This document shows positions 26,453 through 55,531 of a stretch of DNA of 64,000 nucleotides, piece after piece. The DNA comes from an uncultured Gammaproteobacteria bacterium. Its GTDB lineage: Bacteria; Patescibacteriota; Microgenomatia; Levybacterales; UBA12049. A model generated the notes under the pieces. It saw nothing but the letters and a program-made list of their open reading frames with translations, ran no database searches and had not been told where the DNA came from. Made by a program: the position numbers and the translations under genes. The stretch lies in assembly GCA_964653195.1 (NCBI GenBank), contig CAZZCX010000001.1, positions 35,290-99,289 on the forward strand, written 5' to 3'. Position 1 is the first letter of the stretch, and every line of letters starts with the position of its first letter.

Positions 26453-26761
26453 ATGCCGAAAGGTAAAATACGTGTACGTTTAAAAAGTTACGATTCCCGA
26501 GTATTAGATGCTTGTTGTCAGCAGATCTTAGATACTGCTATAAGAACAGGTGCAAAAATAATTGGTCCTATCCCCTTGCCTACTGATAGAAGTGTATATG
26601 TAGTAAATCGTTCTCCATTTATTGACAAAGACGCGAGAGACCACTTTGAAATAAGAGTACATAAGCGTTTAATTGATATAATTTCACCAACAGACAAGAC
26701 AATTGATAGCCTGACCCATTTAGAATTACCAGCCGGAGTAGATATAGAGATTAAGATGTGA
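26453..26761 (+). CDS. rpsJ: 30S ribosomal protein S10
   Basis: RIRLKS.D...LD......GPIPLP. Confidence 0.9.
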
Positions 26762-26969
26762 TAGGTCAATTATTCAGAATTTTAATAATTCGCATGAATA
26801 GAATACTAGTATTTTAGCGTCCGAATTAGTATAATCGAGAATACAGGGAGGAAAGATCAGATAGATTAAAGTGATGAGTAAGATCAATTTGCCCAAAAAT
26901 ATTAAAATGAGGAGGTTTGTAAAGGCCTAAATTCGGAATCAGAAAGAATAAGAGTTTCTATCGAGGAGG

Positions 26970-26993
26970 TAGCCGAATAGGCTATCTTTTTTT
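26970..26993 (+). promoter_or_regulatory. small hairpin (UAGCC/GGCUA) plus U7 immediately upstream of the rplC start codon
   Basis: The hairpin lies between a GGAGG at 26964-26968 and the ATG at 26997. Possible attenuator or standby element. Confidence 0.25.
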
Positions 26994-26996
26994 GTT

Positions 26997-27839
26997 ATGA
27001 ATAAGATTATTGGTAAAAAAAAGTTTCAAGCACAGGCATTTTTGACCGATGGGACAAGAATACCAGTAACTTCTATTGAAGTTATGGATAATGTTGTTTT
27101 ATCTGTAAAAACTATTGATACTCATGGATATAATGCTGTGCAGCTAGGTTATGATAAACGGAAAAAGTCTAAAAAGTCTTTATTGGGACATGCCAAGAAA
27201 GCTAATTTGACTACTGCTCCTTTGATTATTAAAGAGGCTCATATAGGTTCGAATGAAGCTTTCAATATTGGGGACGCGATAAGCGTTGATTCAATATTTA
27301 AGTTGGGAGATATAATAAAAGTAACGGGTAGATCGAAAGGTAAAGGCTTTGCTGGAGTAGTTAAGAGACATAATTTTCGAGGTGGTCCCAGAACGCATGG
27401 TCAATCAGATAGAGAAAGGGCTCCTGGATCTATCGGACAAACAACTACACCTGGTCGAGTATATAAGGGCAAAAGGATGGCAGGTAGGATGGGTAATGCT
27501 ATTACATCTTCCTTGAATCTGGAAATTGTAGATATCGAGGAGATAAATGGCTTAAAGAGAGTTTTGGTGAAAGGTTTAGTTCCAGGTGTAGTAAATAGTA
27601 TAGTAACAATAGAAAAAACAGGAGAGTTATCCGAGAAGAAAGTGCTATCTGTTATAAAGCTAGATAAAAAAACACTTAATGAAGTGACTCAGGATCTTTC
27701 GACTGTGACTGAAAACGTAGTTACTACAGATAATGCGTCAAATAGTGCACCAGATAGTTCTGTAAATGAACCAGTTGTAGCCGAGAAAGAAAGTCAAACA
27801 ACAGAAGTTATCGAAACTAAAATAGAAGATAAAAAGTAA
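26997..27839 (+). CDS. rplC: 50S ribosomal protein L3 (with an approximately 70-aa acidic/Thr-rich C-terminal extension)
   Basis: L3 core FKGKGFAGVVKRHNF.GGP.THG. Confidence 0.9.
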   Translation: MNKIIGKKKFQAQAFLTDGTRIPVTSIEVMDNVVLSVKTIDTHGYNAVQLGYDKRKKSKKSLLGHAKKANLTTAPLIIKEAHIGSNEAFNIGDAISVDSIFKLGDIIKVTGRSKGKGFAGVVKRHNFRGGPRTHGQSDRERAPGSIGQTTTPGRVYKGKRMAGRMGNAITSSLNLEIVDIEEINGLKRVLVKGLVPGVVNSIVTIEKTGELSEKKVLSVIKLDKKTLNEVTQDLSTVTENVVTTDNASNSAPDSSVNEPVVAEKESQTTEVIETKIEDKK

Positions 27840-51194: not shown

Positions 51195-52085
51195 CTATCG
51201 TGGTTGAAAATGTCTTAGCGCATGACCTGCGTCGCCCACTACATATGGGTCAGTTAAGTAATAACTTTCACTCATTGTATCTGAAGCGCCTAAAGCATAA
51301 AAAATTGAATCTATTCCCATTTCTTCAAGGGCTTTTCTCATATTAGGTATTCCTTGTCTTGTGGCAATAATTGATCGATGAATCAATCTTGCGGGAGTGA
51401 TTCCTTGAAAATGAGCTGCGACAGCAACCGCAGCTGTTGATGCGCCTGATGCAGGGTTCACAAAGTCCGCCACTTCTATAGTCTTCCCTTTGAGTTCGGG
51501 GACTTGCTGTGGGTTTTTCCATTCTACAGTTACCATAAGATCTGTATTCTGCCCCACTTTAGGATGCTGTCTTTTGGTAACCACTTTTATTTCATCAGAT
51601 ATTTCTGCGTCGGGTTCCACCCCATGCGCTAAGCGTGTAGTAACTAGACCAGCTCTTACTAAAGATAACGGTCTACCTCGTCTAGCGTTAGGTAAAAGCG
51701 TATCAATTAATTCATAACCCACTTTTGCCAATTCATAATATTCTCTACAAAATCCTTTATCATCGTAGAGACGAGGATCTGCTACGAGTCTTCTGGCATG
51801 TGAATCAATTCTTCCGACCAAAAGCGCAGCGTCTTTATAGTGATCTGCGAGAACCACCACTCCCCTTTCGGGAAGTCGATCGCGATCATCCCAAAAATCT
51901 CCTTCGTATCTGCCAATAAGGGGAACGAATGCCTGGCCGAAATTAACCAGGGCATGTACATCTGGATTATCACCAGCTTCTAAAAAGTCTTGTGGGTTTC
52001 TTAATTCACCGAGAATATTGATTCTTTCCCCATGGTGAGCAGAAGTAACTCTAATCTCTGAACCACCAAAAATGTAAGCTTGCAT
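51195..52085 (-). CDS. uracil-phosphoribosyltransferase-family PRTase with an approximately 110-aa N-terminal extension
   Basis: SLVRAGL (UPRT LRAGLGM), KTIEVADFVNPASGAST (PRPP loop, compare DPMLATGGS), C-terminal YVVGDAGHALRHF (compare IIPGLGDAGDKIFG). Confidence 0.55.
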   Translation of the reverse strand: MQAYIFGGSEIRVTSAHHGERINILGELRNPQDFLEAGDNPDVHALVNFGQAFVPLIGRYEGDFWDDRDRLPERGVVVLADHYKDAALLVGRIDSHARRLVADPRLYDDKGFCREYYELAKVGYELIDTLLPNARRGRPLSLVRAGLVTTRLAHGVEPDAEISDEIKVVTKRQHPKVGQNTDLMVTVEWKNPQQVPELKGKTIEVADFVNPASGASTAAVAVAAHFQGITPARLIHRSIIATRQGIPNMRKALEEMGIDSIFYALGASDTMSESYYLTDPYVVGDAGHALRHFQPR

Positions 52086-52505: not shown

Positions 52506-54029
52506 TTAAATGCCGTTTCCGAGGTTATTTAAAACTATTGAGGCAACCTCAGAATCTGTTATGAGATTGATTCCGTATTTAACTGCAGCTTTTCGTATTA
52601 ACTTGCCGTCAGTAAATTCTTTACTCACCTTAACTGTTTCACGTGTTGGGATATTAATTATCAAATCAAATATTTGCCTTGTAACTAAATCTAAAATATT
52701 GGGCGATTCTCCGATTTGGGATACTTTATATACTAGAGAAGAATTGAGATTATTTTGCATTAAAAATTTATTTGTATTTTCAGTAGTGTAGAGAATCACA
52801 TCTTTATTTCTTACAGCATTTTTGATATATGGCAATAAATATTTTTTATTTTCACTTTTGCCGATACTTAATAGAACATGTTTCTTTTTGCCGGATATCA
52901 ATGCTTGTTTTCCGTATCTATTAGAGTCCCAGTCATGAGTTTGTAAGTTTAAAAGCGAAAATACTGACACATTTCTGATGTTTGATTCAGCAAAAACATA
53001 CTGCAAAACCCTTTCATTGCCTATGCCGTAACCTGCATGAGGATTAGTCAGTTTATTCTTCATAATATTCAAATACCATGCGAAATCTTCATAGCTTCCG
53101 CCTCTTTGCTGATGGAGTTTAAACATAGTTGATGAAAGAAGTCTCTCATTGAGCTTTTCGAAATCATGTTCGCGTACCGCTGATCCTGCACCTTCACCTG
53201 CATATGGAAAAATTAAATCGGCAGATAACGCCAGTCGATCATCTTTCGTCCATACTTTCATGTTGAAGAATTTTATTTCTTTAGGGTATTTCATAATAAA
53301 TACCGGCAGTTCCTGCTTGGGTCCGTTAAGCAAAGATACTACTTTGGCTTCATGCTCTGCTTTTAAATCGTCACCGAATTTCACTTGCGGAAATCCGTGT
53401 TTATTTAAGAGTTTCACCGCGTCTTCATAAGTAATACGAAGAAAATCTTTTCTTAAAACCTCTTTTAATCTCTCTGTATTTCTATTGTAGGTTTTCTTTA
53501 ATATTTCATGGTTGTCTTTTATTATTTGCGCAATCATTGACCGAACAGTTTCTTGAATACTTTCAAGAAGAGCTTCATACATTTGGTTTTCATCGTAATT
53601 TTCGCGAGTCATTGAAAGAAGAGTACTGTCAAACTCTTCTTCAGTTAGACGAAACTGTCTAAGATGCCTGTCATCTTCCTCTTCTTCGTCGCGGCCTGAA
53701 TGAATTACCGTATGTACAGCATGAAAGGACTGAAGGGCTTGTTCAAGCGAAAGCTGCCCGGTTTGAGTAAGAAAAAGAGGAAGATCTAGTCGGTTGCCTA
53801 TTTTAAAAAGCGTATCTACATTTTCACATGCACCTGTTATGCCCACAACTTCAGGAACATCTACATATACTCTTTCTCTTTTTTGATAACTTTCGCGTGC
53901 TCCGTTGTTTAAGCTTTGGTTAACGGAAACTAAATTAGAAAAGTGCTCTGAATAAGGTAAAGTTATTTTATTTTCTGATATTGTAAGTTTTACTGGTTTC
54001 ATATTTTTTTGCCAAAAAAAAAGAGCCAT
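52506..54029 (-). CDS. AsnRS-type class-II aaRS catalytic core (AsnA / AS-AR-like, no anticodon-binding domain) fused to a C-terminal MGS-like domain
   Basis: Blocks aligning to the AsnS catalytic domain: ITYEDAVKLL, FGDDLKAEHE, PVFIMKYPKEIKFFNMK, DLIFPYAGEGAGSAVREHDFEKLNERL, NPHAGYGIGNERVLQYVF (motif 3). The C-terminal approximately 130 aa resembles the CarB/PurH MGS-like fold (HVLLSIGKSENKKYLLPYIKNAVRNKDVILYTTENTNKFL...). Translation may begin at the second ATG (54002). Confidence 0.6.
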   Translation of the reverse strand: MALFFWQKNMKPVKLTISENKITLPYSEHFSNLVSVNQSLNNGARESYQKRERVYVDVPEVVGITGACENVDTLFKIGNRLDLPLFLTQTGQLSLEQALQSFHAVHTVIHSGRDEEEEDDRHLRQFRLTEEEFDSTLLSMTRENYDENQMYEALLESIQETVRSMIAQIIKDNHEILKKTYNRNTERLKEVLRKDFLRITYEDAVKLLNKHGFPQVKFGDDLKAEHEAKVVSLLNGPKQELPVFIMKYPKEIKFFNMKVWTKDDRLALSADLIFPYAGEGAGSAVREHDFEKLNERLLSSTMFKLHQQRGGSYEDFAWYLNIMKNKLTNPHAGYGIGNERVLQYVFAESNIRNVSVFSLLNLQTHDWDSNRYGKQALISGKKKHVLLSIGKSENKKYLLPYIKNAVRNKDVILYTTENTNKFLMQNNLNSSLVYKVSQIGESPNILDLVTRQIFDLIINIPTRETVKVSKEFTDGKLIRKAAVKYGINLITDSEVASIVLNNLGNGI

Positions 54030-54037
54030 CCGGCTCT
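54011..54037 (-). terminator. GC-rich hairpin (AGAGCC-GGAU-GGCUCU) followed by U9, on the minus strand, overlapping the annotated start codon of the AsnRS-like gene
   Basis: Read on the minus strand: agagccggatggctct + ttttttttt. The 54029 ATG sits in the loop or stem. Confidence 0.4.
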
Positions 54038-54114
54038 TTGTTAAAGACTATAACAGTTGAGTATTATCTTAATATTTCTAATCATTCAAAAAATAATAAA
54101 ACAATTTTTAATAC

Positions 54115-54144
54115 TTGTCAACTAGCAAATGTTTGGAGTATAAT
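54115..54144 (+). promoter_or_regulatory. sigma70-type promoter for rny (TTGTCA-18-TATAAT), overlapping a minus-strand TTGACA-17-TATTAT element
   Basis: ttgtca at 54115-54120 and tataat at 54139-54144. The reverse complement of the same region carries TTGACA...TATTAT pointing at the AsnRS-like gene. Confidence 0.35.
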
Positions 54145-54253
54145 TACATTTGGAAAGCAACAGATTATGTGTTTTATGAATAGGACACAGAAACTTATTA
54201 TTATTAAAACTGTTTTAATTTAGTCGTTTCTTCTTCTGTTGCCTCAATTATTT

Positions 54254-55531
54254 ATGGCCGATACTAATACTCATCAGGATCTAATACTCCTTGAAAAAAA
54301 ACTACTTGAACGACAAGAGAAACTTGAAGAAAAACAGGAGTATATAAAAAAACTTCAGGATTCACTTGAAAAAAAATCTACAGAATATACTGAGAAACTT
54401 GAAAAAATCGCATCTTTAACTCGTGATGAGGCTAAAGAAGAGTTACTAAGAGAGGTTGAAAACAAGTCATCAGCTATGGTTGCGCGAATTATTAAAGAAA
54501 AAGAAGAAGAAGCAAAAGCTACAGCTTCAATTAAGGCACAGGAGATAATTTTAGAAAGTATCAGGCACGGAGCTTTGGATTTTATTCCAGAATATACTGT
54601 TTCTATTGTTAAGGTTGAGGATGAAGAGCTTAAAGGAAGAATCATCGGAAAGGAAGGGCGAAACATTAGAGCGTTTGAGCAGTCAACAGGTGTAGATGTG
54701 GATCTTGATGAAGAACACATAATAAGACTCTCTTCGTTTGACTCAGTTAGGCGTGAGATTGCGAGAAGAGCACTTGAAAAATTACTTAGAGATACAAGAA
54801 TTCAGCCTTTTAGAATAGAGGAAGTTGTTGAGCAGACAAGAGCAGAAGTTGACAAGATAATGTTTGATGAAGGTCAAAAACTTGCAATCGAAGCAGGTGT
54901 TTATAATATTCCTACCGATCTTTATACAATACTGGGAAGATTTAAATTCCGCACCTCTTATGGCCAGAATTTAATAGTTCATTCTTTAGAGACCACAAAA
55001 ATAGGTATACATCTAGCAGAAGAGCTTGGGGCAGATGTAAATATTGTAAAACTAAGTTGTCTATTTCATGATATCGGTAAAGTGATGGAGGGGGAAGGAA
55101 GTCATGTAAAGTTAGGAGTAGATTTAATAAAACGGCACAACTTTCCTCAGGAAGTTATAAATTGTATAGCGGAACATCATGAAGATAAACCTTTTTCGAG
55201 CATTGAATCAATAATTGTGTCAACCGCAGATAAAATATCAGGCATGAGGCCAGGTGCAAGATATGAAGATATAGAGAATTATGGAAAAAGACTTACTGAA
55301 ATGGAGAGTCTTGCAAGAAAATACGAAGGGGTAGAGGATGCGTATGCTTTTGAAGCTGGTCGGGAGCTGAGAGTTATAATTGATCCTGGGCTTATGGATG
55401 ATAATCAGACCATTATACTCTCCCGAAAGATTCAAGAAGAAATCGCGCAAACACTTGCGATACCTGGTGAAGTTAAAGTAACAGCAATACGTGAATTTCG
55501 TTCTGTTTATCCAGATAGACAAGTTTCGTAA
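54254..55531 (+). CDS. rny: ribonuclease Y (KH + HD domains; no N-terminal TM)
   Basis: KH domain: IIGKEGRNIRAFEQSTGVDV. HD domain: H...HDIGK...D. The ORF-track start is a TTG; the first ATG (54254) is used. Confidence 0.8.
   Translation: MADTNTHQDLILLEKKLLERQEKLEEKQEYIKKLQDSLEKKSTEYTEKLEKIASLTRDEAKEELLREVENKSSAMVARIIKEKEEEAKATASIKAQEIILESIRHGALDFIPEYTVSIVKVEDEELKGRIIGKEGRNIRAFEQSTGVDVDLDEEHIIRLSSFDSVRREIARRALEKLLRDTRIQPFRIEEVVEQTRAEVDKIMFDEGQKLAIEAGVYNIPTDLYTILGRFKFRTSYGQNLIVHSLETTKIGIHLAEELGADVNIVKLSCLFHDIGKVMEGEGSHVKLGVDLIKRHNFPQEVINCIAEHHEDKPFSSIESIIVSTADKISGMRPGARYEDIENYGKRLTEMESLARKYEGVEDAYAFEAGRELRVIIDPGLMDDNQTIILSRKIQEEIAQTLAIPGEVKVTAIREFRSVYPDRQVS

Follow-up and report, generated by a model that had tools for sequence, protein, structure and literature searches.

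A candidate translation-coupled attenuator in the leader of an AsnRS-like gene from the Microgenomates group

The locus and the AsnRS-like gene

The window analysed here, a 64-kb stretch of contig CAZZCX010000001.1 with a GC content of about 34%, has its closest relatives among Patescibacteria of the Microgenomates group (for example Roizmanbacteria, Levyibacteria, Beckwithbacteria, Woesebacteria and Gottesmanbacteria). Its minus strand encodes a protein related to asparaginyl-tRNA synthetase, hereafter the AsnRS-like protein, and its plus strand carries rny, with the ATG at 54254; the divergent spacer between the two genes is 250 nt long. This spacer holds the subject of the present work, a leader of about 84 nt made of a promoter, a 14-codon open reading frame (ORF) here called the mini-ORF, and a GC-rich hairpin with a U-tract, all listed in Table 1. 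We propose, at a probability of roughly 60%, that the hairpin and U-tract are an intrinsic terminator acting as a translation-coupled attenuator in the leader of this AsnRS-like/MGS gene.

Table 1. Features of the AsnRS-like gene, its leader and the divergent promoter; positions are those of the window.
Feature	Position	Strand	Remarks
AsnRS-like gene	52506..54002	-	498 aa; class II aminoacyl-tRNA synthetase (aaRS) core plus C-terminal MGS-like domain
Spacer GGCAAAAAAAU (GGC, A7, U) between U-tract and ATG 54002	54003..54013	-	A-rich, no Shine-Dalgarno (SD) sequence
U-tract, nine U after GGCUC	54014..54022	-	First three U can also extend the stem
Predicted terminator stem-loop AAAGAGCC-GGAU-GGCUCUUU	54020..54039	-	8-bp stem with 4 G-C pairs, 4-nt loop; 5' arm AAAGAGCC 54039-54032, loop GGAU 54031-54028, 3' arm GGCUCUUU 54027-54020; identical stem in L081
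In-frame ATG in loop/3' arm	54027..54029	-	Rejected as start codon; used by gene callers for P0001
Mini-ORF (uORF) MIRNIKIILNCYSL, 14 codons plus stop	54041..54085	-	ATG 54085-54083; TAA 54043-54041
-10 TATTAT of leader promoter	54093..54098	-	17-nt spacer to -35; invariant in L081
-35 TTGACA of leader promoter	54116..54121	-	Promoter matches 11/12; hexamer invariant in L081; overlaps the rny -35
Divergent promoter-like site for rny, TTGTCA-18-TATAAT	54115..54144	+	11/12; -35 TTGTCA 54115-54120, -10 TATAAT 54139-54144; rny ATG 54254

Regarding its product, the AsnRS-like gene encodes a class II aaRS catalytic core that is nearest to AsnRS; it scores 171.6 bits against TIGR00457, for which the cutoff is 342.6, and the match is restricted to profile positions 129-447, so that the protein lacks the anticodon-binding domain. 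Its C-terminus is an MGS-like domain of the allosteric type that stands at the end of carbamoyl-phosphate synthetase (CPSase).

As for the start codon, the public gene calls for this organism begin the gene at the ATG inside the hairpin loop (54029), which gives a product of 507 aa (P0001). In the related locus L081, with 79% protein identity, the loop reads AGAA and this ATG is missing; in addition, the N-termini of homologues align with the ATG at 54002, beginning with M-K-x-[IV]-x-L. These alignments led to the rejection of ATG 54029, and indicate that the true start is ATG 54002 with a protein of 498 aa, which corrects the annotated 507 aa. An earlier interpretation made from the DNA letters (the sequence-only reading) had offered sequestration of the start codon by the hairpin as one of two possible functions; it rested on ATG 54029 and falls with it, because the stem ends 17 nt before ATG 54002 and the hairpin would reach at most the edge of the ribosome-binding region. 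The succession of T8-9, then G or AG, then an A-run and the ATG recurs in relatives. An SD-like 4-mer between -22 and -4 precedes only 11 of the 56 long ORFs of the window; thus, initiation without an SD sequence must be common in this genome.

The predicted terminator and its conservation

The stem has the GC-rich core AGAGCC/GGCUCU, and the hairpin folds with an energy of -9.6 to -11.1 kcal/mol. Being a GC-rich stem-loop followed by at least seven U, it is a predicted intrinsic (Rho-independent) terminator. The sequence-only reading had described a stem-loop with a run of U, a description that is confirmed with small corrections: the 6-bp stem ending in GGCUCU is followed by eight U and not nine (nine follow GGCUC), and the U-run ends 11 nt, and not 8 nt, before ATG 54002. 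A bidirectional or plus-strand terminator was rejected, since the plus side offers TTTG only and the scan reports the minus-strand site alone. In the centroid fold of the leader, the hairpin is the sole element (whole-leader fold z-score, -0.8), and a two-sequence consensus fold likewise contains the terminator only; the antiterminator pairings that the earlier reading had suggested looking for are present in neither fold.

A loose consensus scan for terminators was uninformative, with one site vs 0.6 expected in shuffles, and therefore a strict criterion was applied to both strands of the 64 kb, namely a hairpin of -9 kcal/mol or stronger with at least seven T in nine. Six sites emerged vs 0.17 ± 0.37 in thirty dinucleotide shuffles; strong terminator-like sites are rare and non-random in this genome, and the leader hairpin is among them. 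The same scarcity of intrinsic terminators is seen at the gene junctions of related loci, where 6 of 81 co-directional ones have such a site. Searches with Rfam found no family in the whole window at gathering score, nor in the region 53950-54300 at E up to 10, nor any gathering-level family in 50 related loci.

The closest comparison is with L081, in which no difference is seen in the -35 and -10 hexamers, the stem, the U9 or the spacing to the ATG, and the remaining intergenic region has diverged and contains insertions. Homologues of the protein number roughly 700 in all; the wider set was of 166 loci, reduced to 125 non-redundant leaders; a terminator-like hairpin ends within 110 nt of the start in 88 of these leaders, and a consensus promoter lies within 260 nt in 80. 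As a control, the other genes of the same loci were scanned, over the 110 nt upstream, for a T-run together with a hairpin at or below -7 kcal/mol. Among genes with a divergent upstream neighbour, this combination was found in 17/26 orthologues of the AsnRS-like gene vs 1/62 other genes, and among those with a co-directional neighbour in 41/54 orthologues vs 6/81 other genes. Because of this difference, the hairpin is, as judged from the comparison of sequences, a specific conserved element of the leader of the AsnRS-like gene and not a genome-wide habit. The stems themselves differ widely between loci (GAGCC/GGCTC, CCCGCG/CGCGGG, GCCACC/GGTGGC, CCCCTCC/GGAGGGG and others); what is kept is the pairing and the T-run.

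These counts bear on several explanations. A leftover terminator of an upstream gene was rejected, the hairpin being found next to divergent neighbours in 17 of the 26 loci. Attenuation within a short leader, the other function put forward by the sequence-only reading, is strongly supported by the same comparison, that is by the conservation in L081 and by the excess of hairpins in orthologues over other genes (17/26 vs 1/62). A chance palindrome beside a T-run in an AT-rich intergenic region would agree with the loose scan, in which the count hardly exceeds that of shuffles; it conflicts with the six sites of the strict criterion, with a stem and U-tract that are identical in L081 within a diverged spacer, and with the orthologue counts, and these conservation data leave it effectively refuted.

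The mini-ORF and the proposed coupling

Transcription of the leader is predicted to start at A54086 or A54085. The earlier claim of overlapping divergent promoters is correct for the window, where both sites match the consensus at 11 of 12 positions and their -35 hexamers overlap, but the overlap is absent from L081: a 43-nt insertion parts the two promoters there, and rny has its own TTGACG-17-TATAAT in the alignment row, its -10 being kept but paired with a different -35. The overlap is thus compaction and not a conserved feature.

Between the promoter and the stem lies the mini-ORF, whose TAA is separated from the 5' arm by one nucleotide (C, 54040). The statement that no minus-strand gene exists upstream for the hairpin to terminate thus holds for genes of normal size, but overlooks this 14-codon ORF that abuts the stem. 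Its ATG stands exactly 7 nt after the -10 box, in the window and L081 alike, so a leaderless transcript is likely and the mini-ORF is probably leaderless. The mini-ORF of L081 is likewise 14 codons long and has its TAA at the same position, and encodes a different peptide (MLKTNKKKLYIYNL). With the last sense codon in the P site and the stop codon in the A site, 32 nt separate the P site from the last U in the window.

Promoter, short ORF and terminator together make a formally complete transcription unit of about 72 nt; accordingly, the 14-codon ORF, or a small non-coding RNA, might be an independent small gene with its own terminator, and the AsnRS-like gene might have a separate promoter. 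We regard this as very improbable: the U-tract ends 11 nt short of the ATG in the window and 0-1 nt short of it in seven relatives, so that no promoter would fit in between, the sequences of the peptides are not conserved, and no small RNA family is matched.

The geometry of the mini-ORF was analysed in a set of 63 non-redundant leaders that have a consensus promoter followed by a terminator, taking the ORF from the first ATG. The stop codon falls 1-9 nt before the 5' arm in 26 of them; shuffles of the leader interior produced 4.9 ± 2.1 such leaders (maximum 12 in 2000), and shuffles in which the ATG and the last 9 nt were kept fixed produced 8.8 ± 2.4 (maximum 17). Five further ORFs stop within the hairpin, and nine run through it and stop just past the T-run. 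The encoded peptides are unrelated and have 10-31 codons (median 14), and the stop-to-stem pattern spans leaders that have no sequence similarity; across the family, the P site is at a median of 31 nt from the last U, with a range of 24-37 nt. Regulatory codons, for Asn or any other residue, were rejected in the absence of significant enrichment; over the last six codons, Asn occurs most often (16/29 vs 11.7 expected, P = 0.06), a figure that is suggestive only.

Another explanation is that the hairpin is a constitutive, leaky terminator or a structure of the 5' untranslated region, which would damp a very strong promoter, stabilise the mRNA or partly mask the ribosome-binding region, with nothing being sensed. 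It is in line with the near-consensus promoter (11/12), with a hairpin that ends 17 nt short of the ATG in the window and 0-6 nt short of it in several relatives, within reach of the 30S footprint, and with the finding of neither a ligand-binding structure nor a regulatory codon run. We hold it to be unlikely, because the start and stop of the mini-ORF are placed non-randomly relative to the terminator, the spacing between P site and last U falls in a tight range, and the tandem modules of the relative L082, detailed below, are hard to explain as a simple damper.

The reading that we prefer, a translation-coupled attenuator, starts from the terminator, the promoter, the mini-ORF and the stop-to-stem geometry, all of them conserved, and supposes in addition that the mini-ORF is translated, that both termination and read-through occur, and that some signal shifts the balance between them. 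Transcription from the consensus promoter would begin at about 54086/54085, placing the 5' end of the transcript at, or within 1 nt of, the AUG of the mini-ORF. A ribosome close behind the polymerase would arrive at the stop codon just when the polymerase gets to the last U of the tract, in keeping with the 32 nt given above; by covering the 5' arm, it would prevent the hairpin from forming, and the polymerase would read into the gene. With no ribosome close behind, the hairpin would form and the transcript would end at about 54014. The leader would then report how tightly translation keeps pace with transcription, with no need of an antiterminator hairpin. Given an ORF of only 45 nt, termination would be the default, and read-through would require fast initiation or a slowed polymerase.

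This geometry agrees with predictions from experiments on ribosome-dependent anti-termination in Escherichia coli. At the tR2 terminator, shifting the stop codon's position from 28 to 5 bp upstream reduces termination from about 90% to less than 10%, an effect that is lost without translation; the ribosome protects about 10 nt past the A site, and the hairpin needs 10-15 free nt to fold (PMC4824070). With this footprint, and with a 5' arm that starts 1 nt after the stop codon, the leader's terminator could form only when no ribosome follows closely.

Several observations weigh against the coupling. Within the first 100 bp of a coding region, terminators are reported to be efficient (PMC4824070). 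A ribosome on a 45-nt ORF may therefore rarely catch an unpaused polymerase, and the window leader shows neither an obvious pause hairpin nor a U-rich stretch ahead of its terminator. Leaderless initiation is an assumption, -10 boxes located 6-9 nt before ATGs not being enriched among the genes of the window; the proposal that leaderless mRNAs are common in this genome was dropped as unsupported by this spacing. Of the related leaders, about a third depart from the mini-ORF pattern, and the loci are not phylogenetically independent, so that significance is overstated in the shuffle tests. Enrichment in the mini-ORFs is convincing for no amino acid, with Asn at 1.08-fold overall. Finally, the 64-kb window contains no pyr gene, and the link with pyrimidines discussed below comes from relatives only.

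Many relatives have a further element, a hairpin at the 5' end of the transcript (hp1), which was found in 39/71 promoter-bearing leaders vs 21 ± 3.5 in shuffles; examples are L013, L014, L041, L057 and L167, where it occupies the first ~30 nt of the leader. About 25 of these hairpins have arms of the YCAGRG/CYCUGR type, and the arms vary by compensatory changes (CCAGAGC/GCUCUGG, CCAGAG/CUCUGG, UCUAGAG/CUCUAGA, UUUAGAAU/AUUCUAAA and UUUCAGAAU/AUUCUGAAA). The loop usually contains the ATG of the mini-ORF and the 5' arm often an SD-like GGAG; a T7-8 run often follows, in many relatives it falls inside the mini-ORF, and Phe is enriched 1.8-fold in the mini-ORFs. Such an hp1 could act as a gate, or as a pause, by which the loading of ribosomes is kept in step with the polymerase. 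In the window and L081, hp1 is absent; only about 45 unstructured nt precede their terminator, and the leaderless arrangement is found there instead. hp1 matches no Rfam family. A PyrR site, suspected from the CCAGAG-like arms, was rejected, with no gathering-score match in 20 loci and none at E up to 5 in 10 loci of the CCAGAG type; the Rfam search of the window returned no PyrR binding loop either.

The compensatory changes of hp1 in many relatives could also reflect a protein-binding site, and the terminator might then be switched by a trans-acting factor, such as an RNA-binding protein (possibly the AsnRS-like ligase itself), a tRNA or a small RNA, the mini-ORF being incidental. The sub-threshold T-box-like leader of L059 (37.8 bits, E = 7e-7) points the same way. 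We give this explanation little credit, since the window and L081 have only unstructured RNA where hp1 would be, no T-box, PyrR site or other Rfam family was detected in the window or in 30 related loci, and a stop codon abutting the stem would be left unexplained.

Operon context and comparison with known systems

Across the loci compared, the leader module always precedes the head gene of the operon, whichever gene that is. In L082 (75% identity), a pyrD-like gene is inserted 18 nt upstream of the AsnRS-like gene, with no hairpin between the two, and two tandem ORF-stop-terminator modules lie ahead of the pyrD-like gene: the first consists of MLKLTPNIIKNNN with its stop and TAA-C-AAAAGACC-GCAA-GGUCUUUU-U9, and the second of MHRLHKFRFKRQFIIQLLLNL with its stop and TAA-AGAGGC-UCCCAA-GCCUCU-U8. 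The module stands ahead of an amidohydrolase gene in L128 and of an argG-like+MGS gene in L004 and L007; the ORF of L004 runs through the hairpin, and that of L007 reads MKLQNFTQF and stop, with a GAGCC/GGCUC hairpin after it. The AsnRS-like gene of L167 and L168 is alone and has a divergent neighbour, and the mini-ORF stops 3-7 nt before the stem.

As for gene content, L004 (347-6909) has the order argG-like+MGS, amidohydrolase PRK06886, AsnRS-core+MGS, pyrD, pyrE-like and pyrF, with pyrD (310.9 bits) and pyrF (210.6 bits) both above cutoff. A tight operon with the cytosine-deaminase-like amidohydrolase PRK06886 and with pyrD/pyrE-like/pyrF, or a fusion of DHODH and PRTase, is found in L007 (326-6391) and family-wide; DHO_dh+PRTase fusions account for 42/111 of the downstream neighbours of the AsnRS-like gene. 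No carAB, pyrB or pyrC was seen in the operon loci of the relatives, and the operon may be a non-canonical route to dihydroorotate. A literature search found nothing on an AsnRS-core+MGS enzyme family in pyrimidine synthesis.

Because the gene shares an operon with pyrD, pyrE and pyrF in relatives, the preferred signal would be the speed of the polymerase as set by nucleotide supply, especially that of uridine triphosphate (UTP), as in E. coli pyrBI and pyrE. We hold this assignment as rather doubtful, since no U-rich stretch precedes the hairpin (the mini-ORF of the window has no U-run at this point) and no pyr genes occur in the window.

To our knowledge, almost nothing is known of how genes are regulated in Patescibacteria, the mostly uncultured candidate phyla radiation, and a search of full-text literature found no paper on Patescibacteria with attenuation or leader peptides, or with intrinsic terminators. 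The leader described here is a minimal candidate attenuator, with a promoter, a 14-codon ORF and a terminator only, conserved in dozens of lineages, and the operon at whose head it stands has a gene content suggestive of unusual early steps in the synthesis of pyrimidines. More tentatively, it could represent an undescribed class of leader that extends over the Microgenomates. In such a class, the stop of a mini-ORF would abut the terminator, the mini-ORF being leaderless in the window and gated in relatives by an hp1 that encloses the SD sequence and the AUG. The leader would gauge how close the ribosome is to the polymerase and would switch a non-canonical pyrimidine operon, in which argG-like+MGS, the amidohydrolase and AsnRS-core+MGS would stand in place of carAB, pyrB and pyrC, ahead of pyrD, pyrE and pyrF; we regard this larger picture as possible, and clearly less probable than the attenuator itself.

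Other features of the window deserve mention. Downstream of the AsnRS-like gene, a 296-aa ORF (51195-52085, minus strand) has no match in Pfam, NCBIfam or PDB; its C-terminus (…YVVGDAGHALRH) is PRTase-like by eye only, and homologues occur about 2.5 kb downstream of the AsnRS-like gene in L016, L019 and L024. On the other side of the spacer, the rny product (54254-55531, plus strand) is only 425 aa long, a length also found in L081, L083, L084 and L085; it matches positions 105-200 of the 201 of RNase_Y_N and, judging from this alignment, seems to lack the usual N-terminal membrane anchor. Finally, a second strong hairpin with a T-run lies on the plus strand at 26965-26989 (-13.2 kcal/mol), 7 nt before an ATG at 26997 and about 200 nt after a 102-aa ORF (26453-26761); its 5' arm contains GAGGAGG, and it could be another leader or attenuator, or a mask of the ribosome-binding site.

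Among known systems, the T-box shares with this locus a terminator immediately upstream of a gene of the aaRS family, but the window leader of ~84 nt has no Stem I, specifier loop or T-box sequence, and a T-box was rejected for the window because RF00230 gave no match at gathering score or at E up to 10. The T-box-like leader of L059 (2714-2906) is below the gathering score of 93; it contains GGGUGGUACCACG, has a very short Stem I, and precedes a distant short-form homologue without the MGS domain. No leader of this type was found in nine similar loci.

The attenuators of trpL, hisL, pheL, thrL, leuL and pheST resemble the leader in that a leader peptide is followed by a terminator upstream of a biosynthetic or aaRS-type gene. 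They differ in their run of cognate regulatory codons and their mutually exclusive antiterminator and terminator, both absent here; in addition, a ribosome at the stop codon favours termination in those systems, whereas it would favour read-through in the present one. A classical attenuator of the trp/his/phe type was thus rejected, there being no clustered codons and no alternative pairing, and the match with the Rfam family Phe_leader reaches only 16.8 bits vs a gathering score of 55.

The E. coli pyrBI leader has a 44-codon leader peptide and a UTP-sensitive coupling in which a ribosome beside the polymerase blocks the hairpin. The leader described here likewise has a short ORF and an intrinsic terminator immediately ahead of the structural gene, and in nine related leaders the mini-ORF even passes through the terminator and stops right after the T-run. 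In the window and 26 relatives, by contrast, the ORF stops before the hairpin and does not span it; it is also much shorter, the host belongs to Patescibacteria, and no leader family of Rfam is matched. As expected for the pyrE/pyrBI type, the ORF ends about 10 nt or less from the hairpin in the window, L081 and L082, and neither the centroid nor the consensus fold has an alternative antiterminator.

A close parallel is with rph-pyrE of E. coli, where an upstream ORF stops just before a terminator that directly precedes the regulated gene, with no antiterminator hairpin. The expression of pyrE is set there by how far the rph stop codon lies from the pyrE attenuator (PMC2784333). The nearness of the terminating ribosome to the hairpin sets read-through there (PMC2784333), as is proposed here, and in the relatives of the window the regulated genes are likewise tied to pyrimidine synthesis. 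The two differ in their upstream ORF, which is the full-length rph in E. coli and a dedicated mini-ORF of 10-31 codons in this family, apparently leaderless in the window; they share no sequence similarity, and the window leader is without a U-rich pause region before its hairpin. The synthetic tR2 constructs of E. coli provide a further parallel, as termination is repressed by a stop codon that lies a few bp ahead of the hairpin only if the ORF is translated (Li et al. 2015, PMC4824070); those constructs were engineered behind a long ORF, whereas the arrangement described here is natural, conserved and based on a very short one.

Overall, we propose that this leader works like the pyrE and pyrBI attenuators while sharing no sequence with them and using a dedicated, very short and apparently leaderless ORF; if its read-through proved to be sensitive to nucleotides, control of the pyrBI/pyrE type would extend to a very distant phylum.

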